A stretch of DNA of 46,509 bases from Candidatus Moduliflexus flocculans (GTDB lineage: Bacteria > Moduliflexota > Moduliflexia > Moduliflexales > Moduliflexaceae): positions 1,258,203 through 1,304,711 of the forward strand of contig DF820455.1 of the NCBI GenBank assembly GCA_000739515.1, read 5' to 3'. A model generated the notes under the pieces. That model made no database searches, was not told where the DNA came from, and worked only from the letters and a program-made list of their open reading frames with translations. This document shows positions 19,430-46,509 of this stretch, piece by piece. The stretch's first letter is position 1. Each line of letters opens with the position of its first letter. The position numbers were made by a program, and so were the translations under genes.

Positions 19430-20197
19430 ATGAAACTTTCAACAAAGATTATTCTTACTACTGGAGTAGTAGCAATCGTTTTAGGCGTGTCTATTATTCA
19501 TGCGATTTCAAAAAAAATTGATCCTATAACAGATGCAATAAAACTGATTCTTGAGTCATTCAAAACGCAGAAAATCACGACAGAATATAAAACGTATGCC
19601 ACCGAAATAAAAGGAACAAACCGCTTGCAGCTTGCCACATTAAAAACGCAGGAAATTTTTACAAGAACTGAAAACTTAGATTATGTCTGGGGCTTGTTGA
19701 AATTCAGCGCTTCTGTCGAAATTTCCGCGCCGGTGGAATATACCTTTTATCTTGAATTGAACGACGGCTGGAAATTTTTAATCAACGATCCGGGCAATAC
19801 GCAAGTGACCGCGCTTGATGTCTATGTGCTTGCGCCGCCGATTCAAGCGAACGCCCCCGCGATTCATGTCTCCGAATGGCAAATCAAAGACGGCGAAACG
19901 AGCGTAATGATAGACGAAGGCGAGATGAAAAATAACCTGATTCGAGAGTTGGAAACCATCTGTCAGGGAGGCATCAGAGAAAAAATAGAGCAAGTCCGCC
20001 CAACTGTTCGCGATGAAGTCAGTACATTTGTCACGACCTGGTTTGTTGAAAACCGGTTCAAGGATTCCCCGATCAAGCCGCGCGTGGCGGGCGTTTATTT
20101 CGAGGATGAAGCCTTGCCGTCAAATGTGGCCGCGCTCTTGAAATTATCGCAAACCGAAACCATTCAACAGACGCCGAACGCAGGCCAAAACCTCTAA
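19430..20197 (+). CDS. Membrane-anchored hypothetical protein: one N-terminal transmembrane helix, then an extracytoplasmic domain. Possibly DUF4230-like.
   Basis: A strong AAGGAG RBS. N-terminal hydrophobic segment IILTTGVVAIVLGVSIIHAI. The first ~250 nt of the gene are conspicuously AT-rich relative to its neighbours. Confidence 0.6.
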   Translation: MKLSTKIILTTGVVAIVLGVSIIHAISKKIDPITDAIKLILESFKTQKITTEYKTYATEIKGTNRLQLATLKTQEIFTRTENLDYVWGLLKFSASVEISAPVEYTFYLELNDGWKFLINDPGNTQVTALDVYVLAPPIQANAPAIHVSEWQIKDGETSVMIDEGEMKNNLIRELETICQGGIREKIEQVRPTVRDEVSTFVTTWFVENRFKDSPIKPRVAGVYFEDEALPSNVAALLKLSQTETIQQTPNAGQNL

Positions 20198-20360
20198 TCA
20201 GCCATTAGCGCGTAGCGCTTGAAGTCTTGTAGATATGCCAGGTTGCGAGGAATCATTCGCCGTAGGCGATACGCTACGCGGTAGAATGCGCGGCGATTTT
20301 GATATTCTACAACACTCAAAGCCCTACGGGCTAAATTATTACAGGAAAGGAATCGTTGTC

Positions 20361-22605: not shown

Positions 22606-23541
22606 ATGAACACAAAACAACATGCTGGAAATATGTTTGTTCGTATTGCTTTCTTGCTGTGTCTGTTGGTCTCCTCCGCATTTGCGGAAGATGCGATTCA
22701 GATTTACGCCCCGCCGACGCCGTCGTCCATTCCGTTTATCCTCGCGGCGCAGCAGATGGACGACATAGACATCACGATTTTTGCCGATCACTCGCAGGCG
22801 CATACACTCTTTCTGCGGGGTGATGTGCCGATGTTAGTCACCGGGTTATCGGTAGGGATCAATTTTTTCAAGCAGGGCGTGCCGGTTCAACTCGTGAACA
22901 GCAGTGTCAGCGGCTTGACCTATTTAATCACAAAAGGCAAGCAGGTCAGTAGTTTTAAAGAATTGGCGGGCGAAGATATTTATCTGCCGTTCGAAGGTTC
23001 GCCGATTGAAGAGATTACGAAATTTTTAGCGGAAAAAGAAGGCGTGGTCTGGGGCAAGGAACTCATGCCGAAATACGCGCCATTTCCATCGGCGCTGGAA
23101 TTGCTGAAGGCCGGCAAAATCAGCGTTATCGCCCTGCCAGAGCCGTCAGCTACGGTAGCCGCCGCGCAGAAGGATGTCTTTGTTTCGTTCGGCTATCAAG
23201 AAAAATGGGATGCGTTGACCGGCAGCAGCGGCGGCTATCCGCAAGTCGGCATGTTCGTCAAAAAAGAGTGGGCAGAGCAGCATCGCGAACTGCTCGCGAA
23301 ATTGCATCAGAACCTTCAGGCCTCAATTCAGCGCGTGCAGGAGCATCCTGAAGAGGTGGTCGCCGCGAGTAAAGACTACTTTCAATTCCCGGAAAAAGTG
23401 CTGATTGCCTCGCTCAAACGAACAACCTTTGCGCTGAAAATCAATGCCGATTTGCAGCAAGACGTTTCTGGATATTATCAGACGATTGGACAGCCCTTAG
23501 ATGACTCGTTTCAGAGCTTTTTTTACCGCGATCCGCAATAA
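22606..23541 (+). CDS. ABC transporter periplasmic substrate-binding protein (NMT1/THI5-like, NitT/TauT family).
   Basis: Signal peptide MNTKQHAGNMFVRIAFLLCLLVSSAFA. Gene order SBP, then permease, then ATPase. Confidence 0.7.
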   Translation: MNTKQHAGNMFVRIAFLLCLLVSSAFAEDAIQIYAPPTPSSIPFILAAQQMDDIDITIFADHSQAHTLFLRGDVPMLVTGLSVGINFFKQGVPVQLVNSSVSGLTYLITKGKQVSSFKELAGEDIYLPFEGSPIEEITKFLAEKEGVVWGKELMPKYAPFPSALELLKAGKISVIALPEPSATVAAAQKDVFVSFGYQEKWDALTGSSGGYPQVGMFVKKEWAEQHRELLAKLHQNLQASIQRVQEHPEEVVAASKDYFQFPEKVLIASLKRTTFALKINADLQQDVSGYYQTIGQPLDDSFQSFFYRDPQ

Positions 23542-24262
23542 TCTTTTCGCGCTGGTGTTGTTTCTTGTGGCCTGGGCGGCGGCCTCGCTGTTTTTCCCGC
23601 CGTATATCGTGCCGTCGCCTCTCGCGGTTCTGCGAGAAACGCCGGTCTATTTTCAGCCCGCCATGCTGCATCACCTATTCGTGACGCTCTATCGCGTATC
23701 GGTCGGGTTTGTCATTGCGGTCTGTGGCGGAACGCTTTTAGCGATCATCGCTGCGCCGCTGCGAAAAACCGCGCAATTGACCACGCTGATGAGCCTGTTC
23801 GAAGTGCTGCCGGGGATGATTGTCGGCATTATTTTTCTGCTGATTTTCGGGCTTGGGCATGGCGTTCCCATCGGGTTAGTCGCGTTCTTAACGCTTCCGG
23901 CGATTGCGATTAACACCAGCGGCGGATTAGCGAAAAAAAATCGGCTGTTAGAAGATTATCTGCGCTCTATCGGCGGAACGCGGCGGCACATTCTGCGCAA
24001 TATCTACCTGCCGGTGTTAGTGCCGACGTTGCAAAGCAATCTGACGATGGGGTTCAGCCAGGCGTTAAAAATTGTCATTCTCGGCGAATTTATCGGCTCG
24101 CAGGACGGCATCGGCTATTTGCTGAACGTGGCGAAAATCTATTTCAATATGAACGCGGTCTTTTTTCATCTTTCCATCGTGCTGCTCTTCATGCTCGTCT
24201 TTCAGGTCACTCAGCAATTGTTGTTTCTGTTGTGTTTAGGAAAGTATTTTTATGCCGAGTAA
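23501..24262 (+). CDS. ABC transporter permease (NitT/TauT family).
   Basis: Multiple predicted TM helices. EAA-like loop region. Overlaps the upstream SBP gene by about 40 nt, so the start is uncertain. Confidence 0.7.
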   Translation: MTRFRAFFTAIRNNLFALVLFLVAWAAASLFFPPYIVPSPLAVLRETPVYFQPAMLHHLFVTLYRVSVGFVIAVCGGTLLAIIAAPLRKTAQLTTLMSLFEVLPGMIVGIIFLLIFGLGHGVPIGLVAFLTLPAIAINTSGGLAKKNRLLEDYLRSIGGTRRHILRNIYLPVLVPTLQSNLTMGFSQALKIVILGEFIGSQDGIGYLLNVAKIYFNMNAVFFHLSIVLLFMLVFQVTQQLLFLLCLGKYFYAE

Positions 24263-24947
24263 TGCCGCTTTTCCCATGCTTTCCGTGAACGCGCTAAACA
24301 AATCCTATGGGGCGCGACGCGTGATTGACCGGCTGTCGTTTTCCATTCCAGCCAGAGAGCGTGTCACAATATTTGCTCCATCCGGCGCGGGGAAATCCAC
24401 GCTGATCAATATTCTTTCCGGCGTGGACAAGCCGGATGATGGCGCCTATACGTTTCGAACAGCAGCGCGGCCCAGCACAATTTTTCAAGAGCCGCGTCTG
24501 TTTCCTTATATGACTGTGCAAGAAAACATCTTCTTCCCGCTGCGCGTCCAACAACAACCGATCACGCCAGAACGCCTGGAACGCTATCATGATTGGTTAG
24601 AGGTTTGCAATCTTGCAAGAGACACACACCACTACCCCTATCAGCTTTCCGGCGGCATGAAACAGAAAGTCGCCTTCATTCGCGGCATGATCACGTTCCC
24701 CGACGTGGTGCTGATGGATGAGCCGTTTAAATCTATTGACATGGCCTCGAAACAGCGCATGATGGCGCATTTGCTGAACGCGCATCCGAACATCACGCTG
24801 CTGCTCGTGACACATAACCTCGACGAAATCCCGCTGTTGACGTCAACGCTGTTTGTCTTTCATGAAAATCAATTAGGCCGGTTTACCACGTATTCCGACG
24901 TGGCATCGCTCTCCGTGCCAGAAATCGCGACTAGGATTTTTGGATGA
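24252..24947 (+). CDS. ABC transporter ATP-binding protein.
   Basis: Walker A APSGAGKST. Signature LSGGMKQKVAFIRGM. Walker B VVLMDEPF. Confidence 0.85.
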   Translation: MPSNAAFPMLSVNALNKSYGARRVIDRLSFSIPARERVTIFAPSGAGKSTLINILSGVDKPDDGAYTFRTAARPSTIFQEPRLFPYMTVQENIFFPLRVQQQPITPERLERYHDWLEVCNLARDTHHYPYQLSGGMKQKVAFIRGMITFPDVVLMDEPFKSIDMASKQRMMAHLLNAHPNITLLLVTHNLDEIPLLTSTLFVFHENQLGRFTTYSDVASLSVPEIATRIFG

Positions 24948-26498: not shown

Positions 26499-28190
26499 TT
26501 ACGTCAGGATCGGCGCATCGTGGCGGTCTTCGTTCATTAATTGTTGTACCTGTTCGATAATTCCGGTGAGTTGCTGGCTCACGCGCCCAATATTCTCCGA
26601 GCTTTGCGCCACCTGCTGCACAAATTGTTCAATTTCCCCGACACCGGCAGAAACAGCGGCTTGCATCACCTGCACCATCTCTTCAATGTCTAAAGTGGCA
26701 ACCGCAGTCTGGTCAGCCAGCCGCCGGATTTCCTGAGCCACCACAGCAAAACCGCGCCCGTATTCTCCCGCTTTTTCGGCTTCAATCGCCGCGTTTAATG
26801 AGAGTAAATTCGTTTGATCCGCGACGCGCGTGATCGTGGTGATCATGCTGGTAATGTTTTGGGCTTTATCGTGAATTTCCTGAAGCTTTTCCGCGATTGT
26901 TCTGGATGCCTGCTCCATATAGCCCATCGAATCGTCCATCCTGGAAATATTGACGTGGCTGATTTTCGCTAAATCGGAGGTCTTCTTTGAAACGGCTGCG
27001 ATAAATTGGCGTCTGGCCTCCGCGAGTTCTCGCTCTTTCGCGGCCTGTTCCTGTTCTTTCAGCGTTTTCGCGCGTGCTTTGGTTTCCGTAATATCAGCCA
27101 GAAAGCCTTCATAATACTGCGTTGTCCCATCAGTGTCACAGACTGCCCGCGCGGAGAGCGCCCCCCAGAAAGGGGTGCCATCGTGGCGTTTTCCCTCAAT
27201 TTCAAGTCCAAAGACATGATCGTGCGTTTGCAGATGAGCGATAAAGCTATTCCACTCAGCAGAAGCCGAAAAAAGATAGCTCCGCAGAGAAGTCACGCGC
27301 TCTTCGAGGTCTTCAACAGAATTGAACCCTAATATTTTTGCCATCGCGGCATTGGTTCGCAACACATTTCCCGTGTCTGGCGCGATTTGAAAGATGCCTT
27401 CCAGCGCATTTTCGAAAATTTTGCGATACCGCTCTTCGGCTTGCCGCAAATCATCAATATTGTTGCGAATCACATCGCGCATCATCGCAAAGCTGGAGGC
27501 TAACGCGCCGAGTTCGTCGCCGCGCCGCGTGTCAATCGTCTGCTCCAAATTCCCCTGCGCAACATGTTCAACGTTTGTTTGCAGGGTGCTGATTGGGAAC
27601 ACCACAGCCCGGCGGATAAAAATAATAATGGCGGCGGAAGTCACGAAAATGCACAAAAACGAGCCAAACACAAACATATTTCGAATGCGCTCTTTTTGCG
27701 CTTCAGACTGTTTTGTATTGACTTTGATAAATGCAACGAAGACGGGTTCGCCGCCTTCATACGCGACAATCGGCGTAGCGCAGATCAAAAATGCGTCTTG
27801 TTTGGCGGTTTGGCGAAACACGCGGGTCGTTTTTAGCTCCGAGGCGTTGCTCGTTTCTTGAATCCAGGCAATGTCAGCGCGCGTTTTTCGAATATCGTCA
27901 GGATGAAGCGCATAATAGACTTTTTGATCGGTGCCAATGACGACGCCGTCTTCGAAGTCTTCCCCCACGATTTCTGTCATCACCTCTTTATTCGAGACAG
28001 ACTCGTAGCGAAGCAGTTGGCGATTCATGAGAATGCCGGGGAGTCGAATCTGCGCATCCATGCGATTATCAATCTCATGCGAAAACCGATTGATGTAGTA
28101 GAGGCCGAGCATCGCAAACGCGACGGCCTCGACCACAATCACCGCCAGACTGATTTTGATGCTCAGACTTTTCAACCAGAGTTGTTTCAT
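26499..28190 (-). CDS. Methyl-accepting chemotaxis protein: 2 TM helices with a periplasmic domain, then HAMP, cytoplasmic PAS and the MCP signalling domain.
   Basis: HAMP ([14 protein letters not shown]). PAS ([14 protein letters not shown]). MCP highly conserved region [34 protein letters not shown]. The start ATG overlaps the stop of the upstream SBP gene as ATGA. Confidence 0.85.
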
Positions 28191-29464
28191 TGTGGCAGAA
28201 CCTTCTGCTTTTGTTGTTCGACATCCTTGAGAATCGCGGGGATGGCGTCAGGTTGATCGAGAAATTTCGCAAACGCATTCAGCCCCAATTCCGCGACATC
28301 CGGGTCAGTCGCTAAATCATAATTAAACGCCCAGTTCGGCGCGGCACGAATCGCGTCAAGAATGCGCTGTTGTAGATCGGAATAAAACGAGGAAGGCACG
28401 TTCATATTGGGCGATAATGCGCCGGACCCCTGGCTCATTTTCTGCTGGGGTTCAACATCCGAAAAATAGACCATCGCTGTTTTCGCAGCCTTCACTTTTC
28501 CTTCTTTCGCTACCGCAATTGCGTCAATCGGCCCTAATGACGCGCCAGGGACCTCTGGCGTCACCGCCGGGAACGGGAAAAAGTCATAATCCTGTCCCTG
28601 TTTCCAGCCAAGCTGCCCATCAAACAGACCGATAATCCATGTTCCCATCAGCGTCATCGCCGCCTCGCCATGAAATAGCTGTTTCGCCGCCTCTGACCAA
28701 TCCAGCATATTGGGGTTCGTTGTCAAATAACCTTGCGAAATCAAGTCTTTCCAGAGCGAAAACGCGGCGCTGACTTCAGGATCGGTATAAGCGGCGTGAT
28801 GCGTCATTAAGCGCTGCCGATATTCCGGCCCGGCAGTGCGCAGAAGCAGATAATCGAACCAGAATTGCGCCGGCCAGCGGTCGCGCGCGCCAAGCGCAAT
28901 CGGCGTGATGCCTGCGGCTTTGATCTTCTGGCAGGCGGCGAGAAATTCCTCCCAGGTGGCGGGAGGCGTCAGATTTAATTGTTGAAAAATCCGCGTGTTG
29001 TAAAACAAGGCAACATAATGCTGCGTGACCGGAATGATATATTTTTGTCCGTTATAGGTACAGGCTTGCCCAATGGCTGCGGGGAAACGCTCATCCATTT
29101 TTTCCGCCGCCCAGATATCGTCAATCGCGTCTAAATATCCCTCTTTCACTAATGCTTGAACGCGCGCTCCAGCCCAATAGGAAAACATATCCGGTGGATT
29201 GCCGCCCGCTAACATGACCTTGATGCTGATTTTGAAGGATTCATGCTCAAATCCTGTCGCTCTGACGGTATATTCGGGATGGATTGCGCTGAACGCGCTG
29301 ACCATGTCGTTAATCCCGCCGCTTAACGCGCCTGTCCAATAATGCAGAAAAATAATTTGCTCCGTTTCCGCCGCAAAAAGCTTGCCTGTGAACATAACTC
29401 CGCTCATGATCACCAGCCATGCCGCCATGTTCTTCAGCCTGAACGTCGCTCTTCGTGTTCGCAT
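28187..29464 (-). CDS. Extracellular solute-binding protein, family 1 (MalE-like sugar-binding SBP), translationally coupled to the downstream MCP gene.
   Basis: Signal peptide. A perfect AAGGAGG RBS upstream of ATG 29464. Typical SBP_bac_1 N-terminal pattern (IIFLHYWTG...[13 protein letters not shown]). Confidence 0.75.
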
Positions 29465-35695: not shown

Positions 35696-38509
35696 ATGCT
35701 TATGAAAAAGTCGTTCATGATTCTCTGGTTGCTGATTGGAACGTTATTCCTCGCCGGTTGTCCCAATCATTATCAAAAGGGAATGACCTATATCGAACAG
35801 GGACAAACTGATTTAGCCATCCAAGAACTCCTCACCGCTCTGCAAAAAGAGCCGAATAACCCTGATATTTATTATCAATTAGGGCAGCTTTATATTCGAC
35901 AGGAAGCGTATCGCAAGGCGCAGGAGATGTTTCAGGCGGTTGTTGATCGTTTTCCGACGTATGCGAATCGCGACGGCGCGTTATATTATCTCGGACTGTG
36001 CCATTTTCAATTCCGCGAATACCCGCTCGCGATGAACGCTTTGGCTGAGGTTGGAATGAAATTTCCAGCCAGTCAGTTCGGCGAGTCCGCGCAGTTCTAT
36101 TATGCGGAAAGCGCCTGGTTTGCTGAGGATGTCGGCAAGGCGACCGGTTCTTATCAAGAACTGTTGCGTCGCTTCCCGACCGGATCATTCTATCCGGTCG
36201 GCTTGTTCCGGCTTGGAGAGTGCCAGTTGACGCTTGGCAATCATGCCGAGGCAGCGGACGCATTCAAAAAATTTCTGGCTGCCGCCGACACCTGGAATGC
36301 CAATGCGATTCAGGGGCGATACGACCTGAATCAATTGATCGAACGCGCCTATTATGCGTTAGGCAAGAGTTTTACTGCCTTGAAAGAACCGGCCAAAGCC
36401 ATCGGTTATTATCGCGATCTGCTGAGTAAATTTCCCAAAAGCGGGTATGCGCCAGAAGTCTTTTATCGCCTCGGCATTGCCTATGAAAGCGTGGGAAATC
36501 AGCAGCAAGCCGTTGATACCTTCCGCACGCTCTTAAAAGATTTTTCCGCCTCGGAATTTGCGGATGACGCTTTATTCCGCCAGGGAAGCGTACAGTTCAG
36601 CGGTCAACAGTATGACGCGGCGCTGGCCTCACTTACGGAATTAATCACCACGTTTCCGAATAGTCCAAACGTGCCGCGAGCGCAGATTATGATCGGCAAT
36701 GTCTTGATGCTGAAAAATGATCCGCTGAAGGCTGCTGACGCCTACGAACAGGCGCTCTCCTATGCGCCGCAGCCGATTGAAATCGGCAGCATTAAAATTG
36801 AGCGCGCGGAAGCCGTTGCGGCGTTACGGCGTCAGATCAGGCTTTCAGCGGCGATTGCGCATTATCAGGCTGATGATTTCGCGAAAGCCGCAGCATTGCT
36901 GGCAGAAATTCCCGCTGAAGAACGCACGACTGAAGAGCATTTTTGGAATGGGGAAATCGCATTTCGCCTGCAAGATTATGCGCAGGCTCGCAGCGATTTT
37001 AATCGCGTGCTGACAAGCCAGGATGCCAAAGATTTGGCGCCGCAGGCGCATTTAGGCATCTTGAAAATTTTATACGCCCAGGAACAATGGCAGGAGGTTT
37101 TGCAGCGTGCGCAAGAGATTCCGCGCGAGCGCCTGACGCCAGAAGTGTTTTTGCTTGCGGGGGATGCGGCGCTGAATCTCAAAGATTTTCCCTCTGCAAT
37201 CACATGGTATGAAGACATTCGCAATCGCTATCCACAACATCCGATGGCGCAAGACATCCTCTATTACGCGGGAATCGCCGCGTACAAATTAGAGAAATTC
37301 GACCAGGCTCGAAAATATTTCAACGATTTGATCCAGCAATATCCTGGACATCGTTTTGCTGGCGAAGCGCAGTTTTATCTCGGCTGGACATTTTTCCGCG
37401 ACGATAATTATGAACAGGCGATTCGCGCGTTTCAACTGCTGATCGAGCGTTTTCCTCAAAGCGAGTTTGTCGTGCAGGCCAGATTAAAAATCGCGGACTG
37501 TTATTTTAACATGGGGCGATATGCCGAATCGCTGCAAGAATATCAACGGATCATGAATGATTACCAGAATAAGCCGGAAATTGTCGGCGAAGCGCAGTAC
37601 GGCATGGCGTTGGTGTATAAAGTGACGGGAGAATACAACCAATATCTCGCTGCCACGCGAGAATTTATCGAGAAAAACCCCAACAGCCCGCTCAGCATCG
37701 CCGCGCAGTTTCAAATTGGCGAACAATATTTTCAGCAAGATGATTACCTGAACGCTATCAATGCCTACCAATGGATTGTGGAGCGTTTTCCCGATAGCGA
37801 GTACGCGGATAACGCGCTCTATCGAATCGGGCAATCCTATGCGCAGCAGAATGATGTGACGGCGGCGTTAGAATATTTTCACAGCCTGATGAATCGCTAC
37901 CCGAAAAGCGAATATCGCCCGACCACACAATATGAGATTGCGGCGCTGTATTTTCACGCAAAAGATTTTGCGAATGCTGCGGCTGAATACCAGACATTCT
38001 TGCAAAGCTTTCCAGCTGATACCAACGTGCCGCAAGCGATGGCTGATTATGGAACATGTCTGATCGCGCTGAACAAGATGCCGGAAGCGTCGAAAGTCTT
38101 CGAGCAATTGCTTCAGCGTTTCCCCACAAGCCCGCAAGCCGAAGGCGCAGGCGTTGTCGTTGGAGAAGCGTATGCCAGCCAGCAACGCTGCGAAGATGCG
38201 GAAGAGGCGTTCGGCGCGGTGTTAAGCGGCTCAGATCAAGGGAAAGCGGCGAAAGCGCAATTGACGATTGCCTCTTGTTATCAGGCGCAGGGCAATGCCG
38301 AAAAAGCGATTGCCGAATATTTTAAAGTGATTTATGTGCATTCCAGCCAGAAAGCCGAAGTGGATCAGGCCACATTCGCGTCGGCAGGCATTTATGAACA
38401 GCAGGGCAAAATAGACGAAGCCCGTAACTTGTATAAAAAACTCGCGGAGACATCTTCCAATCAGGAATTTGTGCAACAAGCGAGACAGAAATTGCAGGAA
38501 TTGCAGTAA
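35696..38509 (+). CDS. Large TPR-repeat lipoprotein, about 935 aa, with tandem TPR/YbgF-like repeats throughout.
   Basis: Lipobox LFLAGC. Many repeats of the pattern A...Y.LG.......Y..A...F...P.S.....A. Confidence 0.75.
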   Translation: MLMKKSFMILWLLIGTLFLAGCPNHYQKGMTYIEQGQTDLAIQELLTALQKEPNNPDIYYQLGQLYIRQEAYRKAQEMFQAVVDRFPTYANRDGALYYLGLCHFQFREYPLAMNALAEVGMKFPASQFGESAQFYYAESAWFAEDVGKATGSYQELLRRFPTGSFYPVGLFRLGECQLTLGNHAEAADAFKKFLAAADTWNANAIQGRYDLNQLIERAYYALGKSFTALKEPAKAIGYYRDLLSKFPKSGYAPEVFYRLGIAYESVGNQQQAVDTFRTLLKDFSASEFADDALFRQGSVQFSGQQYDAALASLTELITTFPNSPNVPRAQIMIGNVLMLKNDPLKAADAYEQALSYAPQPIEIGSIKIERAEAVAALRRQIRLSAAIAHYQADDFAKAAALLAEIPAEERTTEEHFWNGEIAFRLQDYAQARSDFNRVLTSQDAKDLAPQAHLGILKILYAQEQWQEVLQRAQEIPRERLTPEVFLLAGDAALNLKDFPSAITWYEDIRNRYPQHPMAQDILYYAGIAAYKLEKFDQARKYFNDLIQQYPGHRFAGEAQFYLGWTFFRDDNYEQAIRAFQLLIERFPQSEFVVQARLKIADCYFNMGRYAESLQEYQRIMNDYQNKPEIVGEAQYGMALVYKVTGEYNQYLAATREFIEKNPNSPLSIAAQFQIGEQYFQQDDYLNAINAYQWIVERFPDSEYADNALYRIGQSYAQQNDVTAALEYFHSLMNRYPKSEYRPTTQYEIAALYFHAKDFANAAAEYQTFLQSFPADTNVPQAMADYGTCLIALNKMPEASKVFEQLLQRFPTSPQAEGAGVVVGEAYASQQRCEDAEEAFGAVLSGSDQGKAAKAQLTIASCYQAQGNAEKAIAEYFKVIYVHSSQKAEVDQATFASAGIYEQQGKIDEARNLYKKLAETSSNQEFVQQARQKLQELQ

Positions 38510-38515
38510 CAACAG

Positions 38516-38605
38516 AGAGAACGCGGATGATGCGGAGCGCGCGGATTCTCGCGGAAACACAACGCCATCTGTGAAAATCCGCGCCATGCGCGTTATGCGC
38601 GTTCT
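38516..38605. terminator. Family-4 long hairpin (GAGAACGCGGATGATGCGGAGCGCGCGGATTCTC ... GAAAATCCGCGCCATGCGCGTTATGCGCGTTCTC).
   Basis: Imperfect inverted repeat of about 34 bp. It shares the GAGAACGCGGATGA/TCATCCGCGTTCTC termini with the copy at 13536. Confidence 0.55.
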
Positions 38606-38617
38606 CTCTCCGATTGT

Positions 38618-39202
38618 ATGAAACATCAATGGCATTTTTTATGGCTTTTTGTCGGCGCATGCTGCCTGTTCCCGGCTAATCGCGCCGTATCTCAGGACAC
38701 TCAGCCAGAAACGCTTCGATTGCCGGAAGTTGTGATCATCGGCATTGACGAATCGAAAATTCAGCGTCCGATTCCAAAAGTTGAATTGCTTCCCGCGTCG
38801 CTTCCGGTGATGACAACGTCGTGTTTGGATGAGGCGGATGCGTTGGCGTGGCAGGCGGCGTTGGTGGCGCTGCTTCAGCCGCGCAAGGCGGAAAAATTGT
38901 ATCAACAGGCGATTGCGCTTGATCCGGAAGATACAGACGCCTATGCGCGTTTGGGAAAAACATATCAGGCGTCCGGCATGTACGAACGCGCGAAAGATGC
39001 CTATCTCAAGGCCATCGAACGCGATAGCGGCGTCAGCGACATGCATTATGCGTTAGGCATTTTGTATGACAGCCATTTGCGTGAGCCGCAAAAAGCGCTT
39101 GAACAGTATCGTGTCTATCTTGAGCATGGCGGCGCGGATGCGCGGGTGAAATTCTGGATGCGGGAACTTGAGGAGAAATTGCAATCGCCGACAACTCCGT
39201 AG
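38618..39202 (+). CDS. Secreted TPR-repeat protein.
   Basis: Signal peptide. TPR-like repeats (YQQAIALDPEDTDAYARLGKTY..., YLKAIERDSGVSDMHYALGILY). Confidence 0.65.
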   Translation: MKHQWHFLWLFVGACCLFPANRAVSQDTQPETLRLPEVVIIGIDESKIQRPIPKVELLPASLPVMTTSCLDEADALAWQAALVALLQPRKAEKLYQQAIALDPEDTDAYARLGKTYQASGMYERAKDAYLKAIERDSGVSDMHYALGILYDSHLREPQKALEQYRVYLEHGGADARVKFWMRELEEKLQSPTTP

Positions 39203-39226
39203 AGACGCACGGCTGTGCGTCTCTAC
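39199..39226. terminator. Family-3 hairpin GTAGAGACGCAC-GGCT-GTGCGTCTCTAC, between convergent genes.
   Basis: 12-bp perfect stem. A second copy lies at 41967-42000. Confidence 0.6.
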
Positions 39227-39236
39227 GTTGCGGGGA

Positions 39237-39650
39237 TTACGATACGGTTAACGGAATATACACCGTATTGCTGGACGTGCCGTCCCGGTTCTGAACAAAC
39301 ACAGAGAGAATGACTTCGCCTGGTTGAACGAGCACGCTCAGTTGAAATGATGTGGTCAGCGTGCCGGACGTGCCAGAGGCATTCGAGACTCGCCCCTGAT
39401 ACGAATTGCCCTGATTATCGGTAATAAAGGCCGTTCCGTCGTTCATTTTGCCAGAGACGTCAATAAAATTGATCGCTAACACGATGGTCGCGCCAGCATT
39501 GGCGGGGTTGGGCGTGGCTGTGCCCCCATCTGACAATTGCGGCGGAGTTGACGGCCCGGTCGGGCCATCGCTGCCGCCATCGCATCCAGCGAGGGCGATG
39601 ATCAGCGCGAATATTATACCCCACCACACAGACTTCATGCGAAACTTCAT
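39237..39650 (-). CDS. Small lipoprotein of 137 aa. Lipobox LAGC, then a Gly/Ser/Pro-rich linker and a beta-rich domain.
   Basis: An AAGGAGG RBS lies 7 nt upstream of the ATG. It is on the same strand as, and 88 bp downstream of, the HEAT-FGE gene. Confidence 0.6.
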   Translation of the reverse strand: MKFRMKSVWWGIIFALIIALAGCDGGSDGPTGPSTPPQLSDGGTATPNPANAGATIVLAINFIDVSGKMNDGTAFITDNQGNSYQGRVSNASGTSGTLTTSFQLSVLVQPGEVILSVFVQNRDGTSSNTVYIPLTVS

Positions 39651-39738
39651 TCTTATGCCTCCTTTGTTAAATGATTAATATTCTGGATTATCTCGTCGCG
39701 CGGCAACGCCGCGATTCCTCATTCAGCCGAGGAAACTC

Positions 39739-41604
39739 TTATGATGTGAAATCTTTGGCACAGCGAAAACCGATAAAATTGCTCCGGTTGTCTGCCGGGG
39801 CATAAAGTCTGGTCGTGCAAGTGGACTGGTACTCCGGGTGAATCCACGATCCGCCGCGCAACACGATAAAATCTTCGTCATAATCCGGACTTTGATGCTG
39901 ACTCCAGGCATACGGCTTATATCGGTCTGCGGTCCATTCCAAGACATTGCCAGTCATATCATATACGCCGAAAGGACTGATGCCGCTGGGATATTGGCTG
40001 ACTGGCGTCAGATGATGTACGCCGGATTCCTGCGTATTGCAACGGGTATGATCGAATTCGCTCCCCCACGGGAACGTTCTGCCATCCGTTCCTCGCGACG
40101 CTTTTTCCCATTCTGCCTCAGTTGGCAGGCGCTTTCCTATCCAGCGGGCATAAGCGTTCGCTTCGTCCCAGGTAATGTTCACGACCGGAAACGCCTCCAT
40201 GCCGTCGGGGTAGGAATGATTCGGGTCAAACCGTTTGTATTGTGCGTTTGTGACTTCATGCATGTCAATGAAAAATCCATCAAGATACACACTTTGTTCC
40301 GGGCTGGCGTTCGGCGAGCCATTTTCGCGCCCCATAATAAAATGGCCTGGCGCAATATAACACATATTGGCAAACGTATCTTCCGATCGATATTCTAAGC
40401 GAATCGGCGTCTGCGCTTGTGGAATTGTCACAATATCAAGCGTTTTCAGGATGTCGCGGGAAATGCTTTGCAGAAAAGCGTTTTTTTGTTGCTCTAATCG
40501 CGTCAAGATCGGCAAAATCGCAGGCGTCGCGATTTTGCCCAGCGCATAGGCCGCTTTCCAATGCACCATCCAATCGTCATCATGCAGCGCGTGAAGCAGC
40601 GGCTCAAACGCTTGTTCCGATCCAATCTGCCAGAGGGCGCTGACCGCCATGCTGCGCACGTGCCAATTAGGGTCGATCAGGGCGCGGCTGAGAGCTTTGA
40701 TTGATTTTTCGGAACGAAGCTGTCCGAGCGCCCATACCGCGCTTTCGCGCACTTGCCAGACTTCATCCTGCAACGTGGCAACCAATGCTGGCAAAGCGCG
40801 TTGCGAGCGAAGTTCTCCGAGCACCTGCGTGACGCGCTGCCGAATCTGCCAATTTTCGTCATGCAGCGCGAACACTAATGGCTTGATGGTTCGATTCGAT
40901 TCCATGCCCCGCAAGGCTCCAACGGCGCAATACCGCACATGCCAGACATCATCACTCAGGCATTTTACCATGTCTTTAAGCGCTGAGGCCGACCCGATTT
41001 TGCTTAAGACATCAAGCGCCGTACAGCGCACATGCCAGACATCATCGCGCAGCGCTTTGATAATATGCTGCACCACGCCATTCGACGGTGTCAGGCTTAA
41101 TTCGAGCAGCGCGGCTTCGCGAATTGTCCAATCGCCATTTTGTAATGCTTTCGTCAATTCGCCAACGGAACGTTTTAACGAAATCGCTGATGCAGGAGAA
41201 TTCGAAGATTGGCGATGAAGTGGGGAAATCTGCGCGGCACCGTCTGGGATCGGCACCGCTTGTTTCGTCGGCATCGGCTGATCATTTCCAGTTACTGACA
41301 CAACGGGACGGGGAATGGCGTGAGGCGGCGTATCTGACGGAAATGAGGCCGGAAGGGATTTCGGCGCAGAGGGATGATACTGGCGAATGGCAACTGTCGC
41401 GCCGGCTTGCTCTAAATAGACTTTCAGCTTTTTTGTCGCAATTGCGGAAATATTGGCGGCGATCACGCAGGGACAGGATGTCAGAATCGCTTCCGGTGAA
41501 GCGCTCAACCCGCGGATATGTTGAAGCAGCCGGAATACCTTCTCCCGTTCCGTGCCAATAGCTCGCAATTCTACCTCGAATCGAGCGGCGTGTTGACTTT
41601 CCAA
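39739..41604 (-). CDS. Multi-domain protein: N-terminal ribosomal L7/L12 C-terminal-domain-like module, a Pro-rich linker, about 8 HEAT (PBS-lyase-type) repeats, then a C-terminal FGE-sulfatase (SUMF1-like) domain that lacks the catalytic Cys pair.
   Basis: The N-terminus FEVELRAIGTEREKVFRLLQHIRGLSASPEAILTSCPCVIAANISAIATKKLKVYLEQAGATVAI aligns with the L7/L12 CTD ([38 protein letters not shown]...KKALEEAGAEVEV). Repeated DDVWHVR/AA.ALG motifs mark the HEAT repeats. The C-terminal region carries FGE-sulfatase motifs (GNV.EWT.D, RGGSW, FRCA). The start is TTG. Confidence 0.7.
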   Translation of the reverse strand: MESQHAARFEVELRAIGTEREKVFRLLQHIRGLSASPEAILTSCPCVIAANISAIATKKLKVYLEQAGATVAIRQYHPSAPKSLPASFPSDTPPHAIPRPVVSVTGNDQPMPTKQAVPIPDGAAQISPLHRQSSNSPASAISLKRSVGELTKALQNGDWTIREAALLELSLTPSNGVVQHIIKALRDDVWHVRCTALDVLSKIGSASALKDMVKCLSDDVWHVRYCAVGALRGMESNRTIKPLVFALHDENWQIRQRVTQVLGELRSQRALPALVATLQDEVWQVRESAVWALGQLRSEKSIKALSRALIDPNWHVRSMAVSALWQIGSEQAFEPLLHALHDDDWMVHWKAAYALGKIATPAILPILTRLEQQKNAFLQSISRDILKTLDIVTIPQAQTPIRLEYRSEDTFANMCYIAPGHFIMGRENGSPNASPEQSVYLDGFFIDMHEVTNAQYKRFDPNHSYPDGMEAFPVVNITWDEANAYARWIGKRLPTEAEWEKASRGTDGRTFPWGSEFDHTRCNTQESGVHHLTPVSQYPSGISPFGVYDMTGNVLEWTADRYKPYAWSQHQSPDYDEDFIVLRGGSWIHPEYQSTCTTRLYAPADNRSNFIGFRCAKDFTS

Positions 41605-41966
41605 GCGTTCTTTTCTGCTCAGGCCGTCTGCCGCGCGTGTCTATCACGCGCCGCGGCTGGCTGGCAGCATGTCATGTGTACCTATTTTCTCGGCGTCCCG
41701 ATTAAGTGTTCATCAAAAACAGACAATCATCTGTATAGTATAATTATGCAGGTTTTACTGGCGTGTCAAGAAAAAAGCGTCATTGGAGAATGTTGAAGAG
41801 GCAATTGCAGGAGATTGCTCGGCGCTGATTCGAGCAGATATTGATTTTCTTGAAAAAAATGATGCTCGTGCTGTTGGAACGGCGCGTTTCAGGAGCGTCA
41901 GGCGTCATTGCGTCCCCTTGCCTTCGAAGAGATCGCATATTAGGGAACTTTCAAAAGGCCGTAAAT

Positions 41967-42000
41967 CCGGTAGAGACGCGCGGGTGCGCGTCTCTACCGG
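41967..42000. terminator. Family-3 hairpin CCGGTAGAGACGCGC-GGGT-GCGCGTCTCTACCGG, about 30 bp downstream of the MCP stop on the minus strand.
   Basis: 15-bp perfect stem read directly. Confidence 0.6.
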
Positions 42001-42030
42001 CATGGGACAAGTTTCCTGCAATTGGCATGA

Positions 42031-44331
42031 CTAAAAATGTTCAAATTCATTGTCGAGTTCATCATGAAATATGCTGTCCGACCGATGTTTTTCTGCGCTA
42101 TGATGTCGGCGGTGAGGAGTTTTGTCATGCATGTTTCTGTCGTGTTTTTTTTCGAGAAGCGGCGTGGGAGGCGCGCCGGGAACGGCAACTTCTGCGGCGG
42201 CGGCTGATTCGGAGACGTGAAAAAATGTAATCGCCTTTTGAAGCTGTCTGGCCTGAGCAGCCAGTTCTTCCGCGGTAGCGGCCAGCTCGTCGGCAGTCTC
42301 AGCGTTTTCCTGCGTGACTTGATCTAATTGCTGGATCGCGCGATTCACTTGCTCGGCTCCCATGCTTTGCTCGGAACTCGCGGCGCTGATTTCTTGCACT
42401 AAGTCGGAAGTGGTCTGAATGTTGGGAACAAGTTTTGTGAGCATCTCCCCGGCTCGTTCTGAAATAGCGCGGCTGGAATTCGCAAGCGTGTCAATTTCTT
42501 CCGCCGCATCTTTGGTAATATCAGAAAGTTTACGAACCTCTGCGGCAACCACAGAAAAGGCTTTGCCATGTTCTTGCGCTCTGGCCGCTTCAATCGTCGC
42601 ATTTAATGAGAGCAACCGCGTTTGTTGCGCAATTTCTTGAATAATCATGATTTTTTTCGTGATTTCCTGCATGGCCGTGACCGTTTCCCGAACCACTCGC
42701 GCCCCTTCTTCAGCATATTCGACCGATTGCCGGGCAATTTTTTCCGCCTGCACCGCATTATCTGCGTTTTGGCGAATATTCGTTGTCATCTGTTCCATCG
42801 AGGCTGACGCTTGCTCGGTCGAGGCCGACTGATTCGCCGCTCCTTCCGACATCTGCGCGGCGTTCACATTCATCTGCTGACTGCTGATCGCCACGTTATC
42901 AGCGCTCACTTTAATCTGAACCACGATATCCTGCAATGTTTTGCTCATGCTATTGAGTGCGCGCATCAGCGTATCCTGTTCCGAGCGTTCTTGCACTTCC
43001 CTGGTAAAATTTCCGCGCGCCATCTCTTCTGCTAAACTGGTAATCTCCTGGGTGGCAATAATCAATTGATTGACATTCTTTTTAATCGTGTTGAAATCGC
43101 CGCGATATTCTGCGGTAATCAATTCCGGCACATCCCCTTTGGCAATTCGCTCAATCGTTTGTATCGCCACTGTCACCGGCGTCGTAAATGCATCAACTAC
43201 CTGATTGACACCAGAGACGAGTTCGCGCCAACCGCCGCCGAAGGCGGAGACATCGCCGCGCGCGTCAAGCTGCCCATCCTGAATCGCCTGACTGAGCGTG
43301 CGAATCGCCTGAATGACGTTCCGAATATCTGAGCCTAACAGATTCAGATTCTGTTTCGTCTTATTAAAATCGCCGCAGTATTCAGCGGTAATCTGTTCTG
43401 GAATTTCGCTGTTTGAAAGCCGTTCGATATAATTGGCAGTGGTATTAATGGGCGTCACCAACGCGTCTAACAAGTTATTCACGCCGACCATAAGCTCGCG
43501 CCAATTACCCGCATAACCGGACAACTCGCTGCGCGTGGATAACTGCCCAGCTTGAATGGCCTGGATAAGCCCATGCAAATCCAGCAAGGCGCGTTGGATC
43601 GTAGTTTGCATCGTGTGAAATGCGCGGGCTAACGATCCAATTTCGTCGCGTTGGCGGATATCAATGACCTGCTCAAATTGCCCGTCGGCAATGCTATTAG
43701 CCACCTTGACCAGGCTCGTCACCGGCTGCACGATCATTTTGCGTCCCATGACATAGGATAAGGCTAATAATGCGACAAACACAATCAGCGACGCCCAGCC
43801 AACGGAGATGAGATACGATTGGCGCTGCCGAAACATAATTGTTTTGGGCAGCGTGACGCCGATGAGCCAATCCCAGGTCTCAAAATACTTAAAGACCGTA
43901 AAATAGCCAACTCCCGCCTGCTCATAATCCAGCGTCCCGGACTTTTGAGCGAGCATCTGCTGGATGTATGCCTGATTGGCGGCCTGGCTCTCATCCTGCG
44001 CAAATTTTGATTGGAACAGCATTTTTTGTTCTTTAACGGCAAGCACATAATAACCTTCTGTCTGCGATTCAGTTTCCGCCGACATCTTCTGAAGTATCTC
44101 AGTCTGCGCCTGTTGCACGTATGCCGCGATTCCCGTGGCGCCGGAATCTTCCAACAGCTTGATCGTCGCGTCGATTTTTTCGATTTGCGCGGCTAATTTT
44201 AACGATAACAAGCCTGTATTCAGTTCGTAAATAATGGCATTAATCACCCAGGTGCCAATCGCGACCATTAAGATGACCATCGCGAAGAGCAGAGATCCGA
44301 TAAAGACGGATAGTTTCATTTGAATTTTCAT
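42031..44331 (-). CDS. Methyl-accepting chemotaxis protein with a periplasmic sensor domain, HAMP, three tandem roughly 75-aa HAMP-like repeats (poly-HAMP) and the MCP signalling domain.
   Basis: Two TM segments. Triplicated segment ...GYAGNWRELMVGVNNLLDALVTPIN... / ...GGWRELVSGVNQVVDAFTTPVT... . Conserved MCP region LLSLNATIEAARAQEHGKAFSVVAAEVRKLSD. Confidence 0.85.
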   Translation of the reverse strand: MKIQMKLSVFIGSLLFAMVILMVAIGTWVINAIIYELNTGLLSLKLAAQIEKIDATIKLLEDSGATGIAAYVQQAQTEILQKMSAETESQTEGYYVLAVKEQKMLFQSKFAQDESQAANQAYIQQMLAQKSGTLDYEQAGVGYFTVFKYFETWDWLIGVTLPKTIMFRQRQSYLISVGWASLIVFVALLALSYVMGRKMIVQPVTSLVKVANSIADGQFEQVIDIRQRDEIGSLARAFHTMQTTIQRALLDLHGLIQAIQAGQLSTRSELSGYAGNWRELMVGVNNLLDALVTPINTTANYIERLSNSEIPEQITAEYCGDFNKTKQNLNLLGSDIRNVIQAIRTLSQAIQDGQLDARGDVSAFGGGWRELVSGVNQVVDAFTTPVTVAIQTIERIAKGDVPELITAEYRGDFNTIKKNVNQLIIATQEITSLAEEMARGNFTREVQERSEQDTLMRALNSMSKTLQDIVVQIKVSADNVAISSQQMNVNAAQMSEGAANQSASTEQASASMEQMTTNIRQNADNAVQAEKIARQSVEYAEEGARVVRETVTAMQEITKKIMIIQEIAQQTRLLSLNATIEAARAQEHGKAFSVVAAEVRKLSDITKDAAEEIDTLANSSRAISERAGEMLTKLVPNIQTTSDLVQEISAASSEQSMGAEQVNRAIQQLDQVTQENAETADELAATAEELAAQARQLQKAITFFHVSESAAAAEVAVPGAPPTPLLEKKHDRNMHDKTPHRRHHSAEKHRSDSIFHDELDNEFEHF

Positions 44332-44397
44332 ATTTCACCGTAATAATATGTTTGATACGCTCGTTTTCAAGAAAAGAGTCGCATCCGTTGTGCGTGT

Positions 44398-45408
44398 TTA
44401 TTTTTTGCGAATGACTTGCTTACCCTCGTAGTCGTCATAGATGACATTGGCGAGATTCAACACGTCCATAGGGAAGACGATGCCTAAATTTGTGGCGGTT
44501 TTGCGGTTGAGCGCAATGTTGACTTTGCCTGGATATTCAGCTTTGATCGTGTTGATCTCCTCCCCTTGTAACACTCGCGCCACCATCCGTCCACATTGCA
44601 TACCGACCTCCGCCGTATCAATCCCAAAAGCGCAGAGCGTGCCGGCTTGCACCGGAAATTCCCAATAGGAGACCGTCGGTTTTTTGAGATGCTCTCGCTG
44701 CCAGGGATACAGCTCAGTGATCACATTAAGCGCGCTGCCATCGCGTTTACGCGTCGGAGATGAGCGCAGTATCCATCCCACTTCAGGATCGTCGTTATAC
44801 TGCAAAATTGCCTGCTGCCAATCTTCAAACACCTCTGCGTTCACAACAGCTTTGAGCGGAATTTGAAGGCGCTGCAAGGCATCAATCACGCGCTCTTTGG
44901 GCAAGATCGAAAATTTGGGATTATCCAGGAACACCACCTGCTGCCCAGGCTTCAGTGGGGCGACTTTCTGCAAAAATTTATAGCTATTAAAGACCATATC
45001 CTGCAAGGTCGTGTAGGTTCCGGTAATATTGCTGGTGGGCATGCCATCTTCCCCAACAAAGGGTTCAACATTCACCCGAGTGATCACCGGAATCGGAAGC
45101 CCCTTTAACGCGACCAACACATCGCTTAATCCAGAAACATCTAAGATCGCTGAGGGAGCGCTCTCCTGAATTTGAGCGACCACTTGCGTCAAATCACCTT
45201 GAGATGGCACAACAATTTTTTCGATGCGCACATTCTGTTGATCGGTCAAACCGGCCTGGGTCAACCCATTCAACATTTGATCAAAAATTAGGGGGTTGAG
45301 ATTTTGCATATCCAACACCACAACCTTTTTGAGGTCTGCCGCGCCCCCGACATTCGCAGCCCCCAATAGCGCCACAAGCGCTATGCTCATCATCACGATG
45401 CGTTTCAT
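44398..45408 (-). CDS. Periplasmic ABC-type substrate-binding protein of the COG2984 / ABC_sub_bind family, upstream of and co-oriented with the MCP.
   Basis: Signal peptide MKRIVMMSIALVALLGAANVGGAA. Family pattern (...NITG..., C-terminal ALNRKTATNLGIVFPMDVLNLA). Confidence 0.65.
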   Translation of the reverse strand: MKRIVMMSIALVALLGAANVGGAADLKKVVVLDMQNLNPLIFDQMLNGLTQAGLTDQQNVRIEKIVVPSQGDLTQVVAQIQESAPSAILDVSGLSDVLVALKGLPIPVITRVNVEPFVGEDGMPTSNITGTYTTLQDMVFNSYKFLQKVAPLKPGQQVVFLDNPKFSILPKERVIDALQRLQIPLKAVVNAEVFEDWQQAILQYNDDPEVGWILRSSPTRKRDGSALNVITELYPWQREHLKKPTVSYWEFPVQAGTLCAFGIDTAEVGMQCGRMVARVLQGEEINTIKAEYPGKVNIALNRKTATNLGIVFPMDVLNLANVIYDDYEGKQVIRKK

Positions 45409-46130
45409 TGCGTTTCACTCCTGTCGGCTCAGCGTGAGCGCTGAGATATATCATCACATCGCCCGCGACGCCAATCATAAAAAGGGAATAAGAAAAATGT
45501 CATTTGACCAACATTTCCCATAATGCGACTAGAGATAGACAGCAAAAGCGAGCGAAGGATGAAAAAATTTTTCTTCATGTCCGCGTGTTTTTGTACCTGC
45601 AATGATAACCTTCACATCCAATAAACGATTTTCCGCCCTGTTTGCAGCAGTGATGGTAAAAACGATTATAAATCGTACATTGTCAGACTGTTTTCATGAG
45701 AACAACACCCTCGTTTCAACTGATGCCAATTGCATTTGAAAAGATCACTCACTTAAATATTGACATATCTTCATCATCTACAAAATGTTGAATTCAGCGG
45801 GGCGTGAGTGTGTACGCTCTGCTTGAACGCAGTGGCCTATCGAAAAAGTGTGGAGGATAAATTTTACACAGTCGCTTGTCTGTGCGCTCCGTAGCATTCT
45901 TTGCGAACGGTTCGGACACAGAGCATATCATTAAATTAATTATGGAACTTCCCAGGCATGTGTTGGGAGGCTTAACATAGATAGATTCAACTCTCCTTGT
46001 ATAGCCTCCCGCCAATCGTCATGTTTTCGTGTTTGGTGTGAGGCTTGTCTTGTGTTCTGCTCCGATTCAGACAGCCTCTTCAGTTAGTATCGTCAATGAT
46101 CTCTGTGAATTTTGAAGAGGAGGTTTACCC

Positions 46131-46509
46131 ATGATTCGTATCTTCGACGGCTCGAATCAACTGATTGAAGTCGAGAATCCGAAAGCCAAAGGTTCGTGGA
46201 TTCATCTGACATCGCCCACAGATGAAGAATTGCAGCATATCTATAGAATATTTCAAGGGATGGTCCCGATGGATTTCCTCACGGATCCGTTGGATATCAA
46301 TGAACGCTCTCGCATTGAAGTGGATGATCATAGTGTGCTGATCATTGCGCGTTTTCCGGTGTTTAATCAATCGCGCGATATTGCCTTCACAACTCAGCCG
46401 GTTGGAATCATCTATACCGAGGACGCGATTCTGACGATATGCTGCCAGGATAGCGATATTTTTGCTGATTTTATCAACGGAAAGGTCAAAAATTTTTCAA
46501 CGCAATTTC
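46131..46509 (+). CDS. corA: CorA-like Mg2+/Co2+ transporter, N-terminal fragment. The gene continues past the window end.
   Basis: A strong GAGGAGG RBS lies 7 nt upstream of the ATG. The pattern MIRIF...WIHLTSPTDEELQHI...VDDHSVLIIARFP resembles the CorA N-terminal soluble domain. It is partial, so the call is tentative. Confidence 0.5.
   Translation, partial: MIRIFDGSNQLIEVENPKAKGSWIHLTSPTDEELQHIYRIFQGMVPMDFLTDPLDINERSRIEVDDHSVLIIARFPVFNQSRDIAFTTQPVGIIYTEDAILTICCQDSDIFADFINGKVKNFSTQF

Follow-up and report, generated by a model that had tools for sequence, protein, structure and literature searches.

A divergent ABC_sub_bind-type binding protein and an adjacent poly-HAMP chemoreceptor form a probable sensory cassette in Candidatus Moduliflexus flocculans

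The stretch of Candidatus Moduliflexus flocculans DNA analysed here (the window: 46,509 nucleotides of contig DF820455.1, positions 1,258,203 to 1,304,711) carries, side by side on its minus strand, the genes for a periplasmic binding protein and a chemoreceptor. The binding-protein gene at 44398-45408 encodes an exported protein of 336 amino acids (aa) from a divergent subfamily of ABC_sub_bind (PF04392), as identified from the open reading frame (ORF), Pfam, an AlphaFold2 (AF2) model and Foldseek. The second gene, at 42031-44331, was identified from the ORF and Pfam, and encodes a transmembrane (TM) methyl-accepting chemotaxis protein (MCP) of 766 aa. A preliminary description of this DNA, made from the letters alone, had placed the binding-protein gene 66 bp upstream of the MCP gene without stating the strand; the ORF coordinates bear out the adjacency, give a spacer of exactly 66 bp (44332-44397) and put both genes on the minus strand. 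Within the spacer, GGTGA stands 4 nt ahead of the MCP start codon. A terminator scan of the spacer found no minus-strand terminator-like hairpin, only a plus-strand one, and a promoter-like match at 44370-44343 (minus strand) was not significant against shuffled sequences; the consensus scan for promoters and terminators gave nothing above the shuffles and was thus uninformative.

The binding protein scored 48.3 bits against Pfam ABC_sub_bind, which is above the cutoff of 25.9 but low, over aa 45-321 (profile positions 20-290 of 293), and only 40 bits, where 390 are required, on the NCBIfam TrpX equivalog. Its AF2 model, built with 24 homologues, reached a predicted local distance difference test (pLDDT) of 90.6 and has the two-lobe class I (cluster B) periplasmic binding protein fold. 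All of the top five PDB matches of this model in Foldseek were ABC_sub_bind structures, namely 3LFT (with L-Trp), 3LKV and 6HNI/6HNJ (CD0873), with E of 2e-14 to 4e-13 at 17-20% identity and a TM-score to solved members of up to 0.71 (query-normalised) or 0.80 (target-normalised); ribose-binding protein, LuxP and LacI-type folds came next. A profile of the subfamily run against the PDB found 3LKV at E 7.5e-12. The assignment to ABC_sub_bind is thus correct, although the protein is a far-diverged member. The family call of the preliminary description (an ABC_sub_bind/COG2984-type solute-binding protein, SBP) is therefore upheld by Pfam, by AF2 and Foldseek and by the profile search, and in the hidden Markov model check that it had suggested, ABC_sub_bind, HAMP and MCPsignal were all matched.

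Export of the binding protein is predicted from a signal peptide at about aa 1-23 (MKRIVMMSIALVALLGAANVGGA; 45340-45408, minus strand), which was recognised from a hydrophobic stretch at aa 2-24 and from the model, whose N-terminus is a lone helix at aa 2-20 and whose pLDDT falls below 50 at residues 18-23 only. The cleavage site is a putative one, and the N-terminus has no lipobox cysteine. Two positions that set selectivity in VC_1101, A246 and Y262 (PMC6816091), align to W249 and T265 in the binding protein, and both vary among its paralogs. More generally, the selectivity residues of VC_1101 and CD0873 are not conserved in the binding protein and fall in variable columns. Among the canonical members, P0184, P0198, P0178 and P0196 carry 2-5 tandem canonical ABC_sub_bind domains in one protein of 900-1500 aa, some of these with an N-terminal BPD_transp_2 permease domain.

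We then placed the binding protein among its relatives by a HMMER scan of 1.84 billion cluster representatives, which gave 9147 matches at E<=1e-3, 758 at E<=1e-10 and 51 at E<=1e-30. It belongs to a small, divergent branch of ABC_sub_bind, and its nearest relatives belong to Candidatus Vecturithrix and Candidatus Moduliflexus, members of the candidate phylum KSB3/Moduliflexota. The best match was 93% identical and came from a metagenome contig, and an exact-sequence look-up in the assembly collection returned no record. The branch has a C-terminal extension of its own, VIYDDYEGKQVIRKK (aa 322-336, 15 aa; 44401-44445, minus strand). The Pfam match stops at aa 321 and the matches to solved members stop within a few residues of their own C-termini, while this extension has the lowest column entropy and is the most conserved segment of the binding protein. 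It is kept in a 33%-identical Fusobacteriales homologue and in lipoprotein-type relatives from other samples. The most variable columns, for their part, lie in loops after beta strands, and nine paralogs from one Vecturithrix genome share 38% identity over aa 28-125, 67% over aa 126-336 and 86% over the last 37 aa. This gradient fits a ligand cleft that has been varied and a docking face that has been held constant, and we propose that the C-terminal extension may serve as the docking element on the receptor. Two distant tail-bearing members adjoin hybrid histidine kinases with LuxQ-periplasm/dCache_3-type sensors. A further relative, P0193 (734 aa), is an MCP in which two TM helices at the N-terminus and a signalling domain are joined by a C-terminal domain that matches the binding-protein subfamily (E 3e-20); there is no TM helix between the signalling and the SBP-like domain, which would place the latter in the cytoplasm, and the protein is either a genuine fusion or a gene-calling merge.

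The MCP is composed, in order, of a TM helix, an sCache domain, a second TM helix, a HAMP domain, two HAMP_2-containing repeats, another HAMP domain, MCPsignal and a C-terminal EFEHF pentapeptide, with Pfam scores of 90.6 bits for MCPsignal (PF00015, cutoff 34.6), 69.5 bits for HAMP and 165 bits for HAMP_2. Its start, MKIQMKLS, is conserved among homologues. Hydropathy places TM1 at aa 7-34 (44230-44313, minus strand, as for all MCP features below) and TM2 at aa 172-196 (43744-43818), and between them lies the periplasmic sCache domain of 137 aa (aa 35-171; 43819-44229), which was also recognised with Pfam, AF2 and Foldseek. Taken alone (aa 36-172), this domain scored 33.5 bits on Pfam Cache_3-Cache_2 (PF17201, cutoff 27.7). 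Its AF2 model, of moderate pLDDT (76.6) from a shallow alignment, consists of two helices followed by five strands, and Foldseek matched it best to 5G4Y and 4K08 (E 2e-4 to 4e-4), two sCache domains of chemoreceptors.

On the cytoplasmic side, the signalling domain matched by Pfam spans aa 531-687 (42271-42741), and its hairpin tip, LLSLNATIEAARAQEHGKAFSVVAAEVR, is nearly invariant in homologues. Four candidate methylation sites, which are motif matches only, fit [ASTG]xx[EQ][EQ]xx[ASTG] at aa 503, 510, 651 and 685. The EFEHF pentapeptide (42034-42048) is preceded by a Pro/His/Lys-rich linker of about 47 aa (region 42034-42189) and has its counterpart in six homologous MCPs as EFERY, EFEHY or KFERF. 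It resembles an NWETF-type tether for CheR/CheB, a function that it would have by analogy with E. coli NWETF (PMC7390727). The best NCBIfam match of the MCP was the Vibrio Aer2 equivalog (NF041847), which was rejected because the score of 247 bits is far below the cutoff of 1200 and no PAS domain was matched.

Whether the two proteins belong together was examined at 12 non-redundant loci from other assemblies, all retrieved via the binding protein (the metagenome scan gave 3 loci and the genome scan 6); the contigs of two further relatives, P0129 and P0130, were too short for gene context. The sensor-module family was assembled from these loci, two direct homologue searches having given only 3 and 7 proteins, in the case of the profile search only short fragments. 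At 12/12 loci, which span different genera, the binding-protein subfamily adjoins a protein with a TM-sCache-TM-HAMP module like that of the window MCP (phmmer E 1e-40 to 1e-84), the partner being an MCP at 11 of them and a histidine kinase/PP2C protein at the remaining one. The sensor modules of the receptors are mostly 49-69% identical to each other, and 39% for the most distant.

The arrangement of the genes differs from locus to locus. The window has one binding-protein gene and then the MCP gene, and so has locus L014. Two binding-protein genes precede the MCP gene in two Moduliflexus metagenome-assembled genomes, three do so at L020 (10001-13351) and six at L019 (7365-16820). UASB270 scaffold 5 carries an MCP gene followed by seven tandem paralogs and, at a separate site, a binding protein-MCP pair, and scaffold 7 of the same assembly has an MCP gene and then a binding-protein gene. 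On a 7.3-Mb Vecturithrix contig (L003/L009, JAXGYF010000001, 4.91-4.94 Mb), about ten paralogs lie between two MCP genes. L010, on a 10-Mb contig, is a partly decayed copy, and L017 (GCA_041556575.1, 4640-8483) has one binding-protein gene and then the kinase gene. The relatives thus have 2-10 tandem binding-protein paralogs per receptor, against the one-to-one arrangement of the window. Some details of these arrays are recorded here as well. The tandem arrays at L001 (2845-11011), L003/L009, L019 and L020 hold 3 to about 10 paralogs beside one or two MCPs with the window-type sensor module. Within the L019 array, PDDEXK_2/HTH_Rpn_C genes, for Rpn-like nucleases, break the series of paralogs at two points and might be what drives the duplications. 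At L010 (8867-11486), minus-strand binding-protein fragments, an intact binding-protein gene and a 119-aa truncated sensor fragment are followed by DDE transposase genes.

An adjacency of this kind could in principle arise by chance among many MCP and binding-protein genes and carry no functional meaning, and each of the published KSB3 genomes does encode over 60 MCPs, with signalling genes making up an unusually large part of the whole (PMC4312070). MCPs nevertheless make up about 1% of genes, yet one and the same sensor module stands at 12/12 loci in different genera, the kinase version included, and we regard chance adjacency as extremely improbable and effectively excluded. The kinase locus, L017, is informative on which part of the receptor the binding protein follows. 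Here, a binding protein 44% identical to that of the window is encoded directly upstream of a 910-aa HAMP-HisKA-HATPase-REC-SpoIIE protein, the first 238 residues of which are 37% identical to the sensor module of the window MCP (over 241 aa, E 3e-52). The output domain has been swapped while the binding protein has been retained, indicating that the binding protein follows the sensor module and not the output domain. A Ser/Thr protein kinase gene lies ahead of the binding-protein gene at this locus.

We next considered an ordinary role in transport, in which the protein would be the SBP of an ABC importer whose other genes lie elsewhere, and its place beside the MCP would reflect co-regulation, chance or a dual role like that of MBP and Tar. 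ABC_sub_bind is a transporter family whose solved members bind Trp, Tyr or Phe as uptake proteins (PMC6816091), some canonical members are fused to a BPD_transp_2 permease, and most known MCP-stimulating SBPs are transporter components, according to a 2021 review (PMC8050422). Around the 12 loci, no ABC ATPase was found within 8-10 kb in 11, nor was one found beside the window gene; the sole exception is the gene of a MacB/FtsX-type exporter about 6.7 kb upstream at L020, and exporters of this type use no binding protein. The only ABC system of the window, an NMT1/BPD_transp_1/ABC_tran operon at 22606-24947, was rejected as the cognate transporter, being of a different type, having its own binding protein and lying about 20 kb away. 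The lack of an SBP-dependent ABC ATPase near the loci, the invariant adjacency to one sensor module, the identity of only 17-20% to transport members, the C-terminal extension and the occurrence of up to 10 paralogs without any permease, unlike transporter operons, all speak against an importer component, and we consider this role improbable.

A different question is whether the MCP needs the binding protein for sensing at all. It could sense directly via its own sCache pocket, with the binding protein as a non-activating accessory, that is, a scavenger, a buffer or a competing modulator. The periplasmic domain has a Cache fold, which could bind ligand itself, and its closest structures, 5G4Y and 4K08, come from chemoreceptors, the former titled as a carboxylic-acid-recognising Cache domain. 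Both of these domains presumably bind their ligands directly. The title of a 2026 paper, according to which an MCP and periplasmic SBPs compete for ligand (PMC13556227), was counted on the same side. A receptor pocket by itself can hardly explain, however, why the sensor module is conserved while the binding proteins diversify, with 2-10 paralogs per receptor, and the strict retention of the binding protein beside this module, even where the output domain has been swapped, argues for a functional complex. Direct sensing therefore appears to us unlikely, though it deserves somewhat more weight than a role in import.

Taken together, these results suggest that the two genes probably form a sensory cassette, in which the binding protein would be dedicated to signalling and would dock on the sCache domain instead of serving as a transport component. 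The preliminary description had already taken the binding protein for a sensing partner of the MCP and not a transport protein, and this is now backed by the conserved adjacency, the module swap at the kinase locus and the absence of a nearby cognate transporter. Besides the Cache fold of the receptor, several points weigh against this interpretation. The identity of the C-terminal parts among tandem paralogs could partly reflect gene conversion and not a constraint from docking. A cognate transporter of the COG4120/COG1101 type could exist elsewhere, the transporter check having covered 8-10 kb around the loci. All loci were found via the binding protein, so that a receptor stands beside it every time; the converse does not follow. 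Finally, co-transcription of the two genes is suggested solely by the 66-bp spacing and the common strand.

In the mechanism that we propose, the two-lobed exported ABC_sub_bind-type protein would take up a small molecule in its interlobe cleft and would then dock, or shift its seating, on the chemoreceptor encoded after the 66-bp spacer, at the periplasmic sCache domain. The signal would travel via TM2 and along as many as six HAMP-sized units in series before it reached the MCP signalling domain, which would control a CheA/CheW-type pathway, and adaptation would rely on the methylation sites and the C-terminal EFEHF tether. We infer the physical interaction of binding protein and receptor, the docking surface, the co-transcription and the output pathway from the comparative analysis described above.

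A broader, more tentative possibility concerns the whole IYxDYEG-tailed branch. Its members may be dedicated receptor adaptors, whose C-terminal face fits the sCache domain (the dCache domain in distant cases) and whose N-lobe and cleft are varied, so that arrays of up to about 10 interchangeable proteins would give one receptor or kinase a combinatorial ligand range; the window would then be the minimal one-to-one version of such a system. We think this wider scheme somewhat less probable than not at present. If it is true, the adaptors could be a main route of substrate sensing for filaments in the non-flagellated, gliding Moduliflexota. The published KSB3 genomes lack flagellar genes, and KSB3 filaments were seen gliding only in glucose or maltose gradients (PMC4312070).

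That receptors can be activated through SBPs is established for BasB/BasT, CosB/CosT, LuxP/LuxQ and TorT/TorS, as set out in the 2021 review (PMC8050422). According to this review, an SBP that stimulates a chemoreceptor is as a rule encoded in a transporter operon, BasB/BasT and CosB/CosT of Halobacterium being the gene-adjacent exceptions; the kinase partners LuxP and TorT are encoded beside their sensors (PMC8050422). No ABC_sub_bind member appears in the covered portions of the review's table of SBP-receptor pairs (PMC8050422), nor do the eight papers that full-text searches for ABC_sub_bind/PF04392/COG2984 brought up, judged mostly by title and abstract, contain a description of a receptor partnership. 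The preliminary description had called the family a frequent partner of kinases and cyclases; we saw kinases at three loci and no cyclases, and the statement itself was not found in the literature searched. Since activation of receptors by SBPs is established and no ABC_sub_bind partnership appeared in that literature, the cassette represents a fresh case of a known principle in a family not reported in this role, and is apparently undescribed. The multi-paralog arrays are a notable variant of it, which occurs in the relatives, outside the window.

Among the known systems, BasB/BasT and CosB/CosT are the most similar in layout: the SBP gene lies immediately upstream of the transducer gene and is tied to signalling and not to transport, the receptors have a Cache-like extracytoplasmic domain, as here, and chemotaxis is SBP-mediated (PMC8050422). 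These two pairs are archaeal (Halobacterium salinarum), with Peripla_BP_6/OpuAC SBPs and dCache-like sensors, whereas the window cassette is bacterial and combines an ABC_sub_bind protein with a small sCache domain and a poly-HAMP chain, and its relatives have multi-paralog arrays. BasB/BasT and CosB/CosT of H. salinarum were reportedly the subject of Kokoeva et al. in 2002. LuxP/LuxQ of Vibrio and TorT/TorS resemble the window pair in that a type I periplasmic binding protein used for signalling is encoded beside its membrane sensor. LuxP is, moreover, among the structural matches of the window binding protein, and distant subfamily members adjoin the LuxQ-periplasm/dCache_3-type hybrid kinases mentioned above. 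LuxP is a Peripla_BP_4 protein and TorT a Peripla_BP_1 protein, however, and both have a kinase as partner, where the window protein has an MCP.

In the E. coli pairs MBP-Tar, RBP/GBP-Trg and DppA-Tap, the ligand-loaded SBP docks on the periplasmic domain of an MCP, as is proposed here. Trg accepts several SBPs, which recalls the arrays, and E. coli MCPs carry a C-terminal pentapeptide that tethers CheR/CheB, to which EFEHF would be the counterpart. In contrast, the E. coli SBPs are transporter components encoded in transporter operons and their receptors have a four-helix bundle, while the window receptor has an sCache domain and its binding protein no cognate transporter nearby. TrpX, VC_1101 and CD0873 (3LFT, 3LKV, 6HNI) share the Pfam family and the two-lobe class I fold with the window protein; they function in aromatic amino acid transport, CD0873 is a lipoprotein, and none has the C-terminal VIYDDYEGK extension. 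Aer2-type receptors share the serial HAMP units between the membrane or input part and the signalling domain, whereas the window MCP has no PAS-haem domain, is transmembrane and senses in the periplasm.

To our knowledge, a ligand has been assigned to only a minority of chemoreceptors and sensor kinases. Sensing by way of SBPs is thought to be widespread and is documented in few systems, and the gene-adjacent examples that the 2021 review lists for chemoreceptors are archaeal (PMC8050422). If the interpretation is true, the cassette adds a bacterial, signalling-dedicated branch to a transporter family, and the C-terminal IYxDYEG tail together with the defined partner module could be used for annotating similar systems. 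Ligand screens are easy to run on soluble binding proteins, which makes this one a tractable target, and its ligand could help to reveal which substances are sensed by the filaments that cause bulking in anaerobic wastewater reactors.

The segment between TM2 and the signalling domain of the MCP was also analysed. On isolated segments, Pfam matched a first HAMP domain at aa 198-251 (43579-43740; 52 bits), HAMP_2 twice, and a last HAMP unit at about aa 436-490 (42862-43026; HAMP E 5e-4), which also aligns to the first one with a score of 56. Between the two lie repeat copies A (aa 254-336; 43324-43572) and B (aa 345-427; 43051-43299), each a HAMP-like unit with a HAMP_2 core, which were found by self-alignment (score 215) and HAMP_2 matches. 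The period is 273 nt (91 aa), and each 91-aa repeat corresponds to two HAMP-sized units with a Pfam HAMP_2 match. The poly-HAMP character given in the preliminary description is thus confirmed, with three or more consecutive units. That description had further claimed a DNA-level repeat of three units of about 225 bp at about 43060-43640; the location is about right, while count and period are not. A three-copy repeat of this length was rejected, because Tandem Repeats Finder found no 225-bp or 273-bp array in 41000-46509, only two trivial short repeats, and a DNA repeat search found two copies at 273-nt spacing, 70% identical over 88 nt. With 48% aa and 59% nt identity between copies A and B and no DNA-level array, the repeat is mainly a protein-level duplication of a 91-aa unit. 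Homologous MCPs have 0, 1 or 2 copies of it, one two-copy protein with an extra inserted unit, which suggests that the 91-aa repeat is a modular, duplicable spacer.

The window contains another pair of this kind, also on the minus strand, in which an SBP_bac_1 binding protein (425 aa, 28187-29464; Pfam 118 bits) is followed by a HAMP-PAS-MCPsignal chemoreceptor (563 aa, 26499-28190; from ORF and Pfam). The two genes share 4 bp (28187-28190), an overlap suggestive of coupled translation, and no ABC permease or ATPase was found adjacent to them. A phmmer search with the sensor module of the MCP described above misses this chemoreceptor, in agreement with the preliminary description, which had regarded the two pairs as unrelated. 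It had also read them as a preferred sensing strategy of the organism. Qualitatively this holds, in that both window MCP genes have a binding-protein gene directly upstream and that, of five bystander MCPs at the loci whose sensor domains are of other kinds, three have an SBP_bac_3, PBP_like_2 or different ABC_sub_bind gene ahead of them; the pattern is suggestive and, because the loci were selected via the binding protein, anecdotal.

The surroundings of the cassette complete the description of the locus. On the 5' side of the binding-protein gene, a 722-bp spacer (45409-46130) is followed by a divergent CorA-like gene starting at 46131. This spacer is unusually long and has one promoter-like site at 45503-45474 (minus strand), none being convincing; it gave neither a match in Rfam nor an ORF assignable to a family, and an Rfam scan of 38000-46509 at E<=1 returned a single sub-threshold chance match (PAGEV, 18 bits against 61). 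The window holds no che genes, and three sizeable ORFs at 19430-22106 and 12-1247 (plus strand; 255, 623 and 411 aa) gave no Pfam match at E<=1e-5. The remaining window is ordinary chromosome, with ruvCAB, a cobalamin cluster, alanine racemase and a GH1 glycosidase. Downstream of the MCP gene, after a gap of 426 bp, a gene on the same strand (39739-41604) encodes a 621-aa protein with a weak N-terminal match to the Ribosomal_L12 C-terminal domain, a block of HEAT/PBS-lyase repeats and, at its C-terminus, an FGE-sulfatase (formylglycine-generating enzyme-like) domain. At the other end of the window, a REC-HisKA fragment gene (1294-2082) precedes the gene of a 2014-aa signalling protein (2785-8829, plus strand) that is composed of a Ser/Thr kinase, an AAA_16 ATPase, GAF, HisKA-HATPase and a receiver domain.

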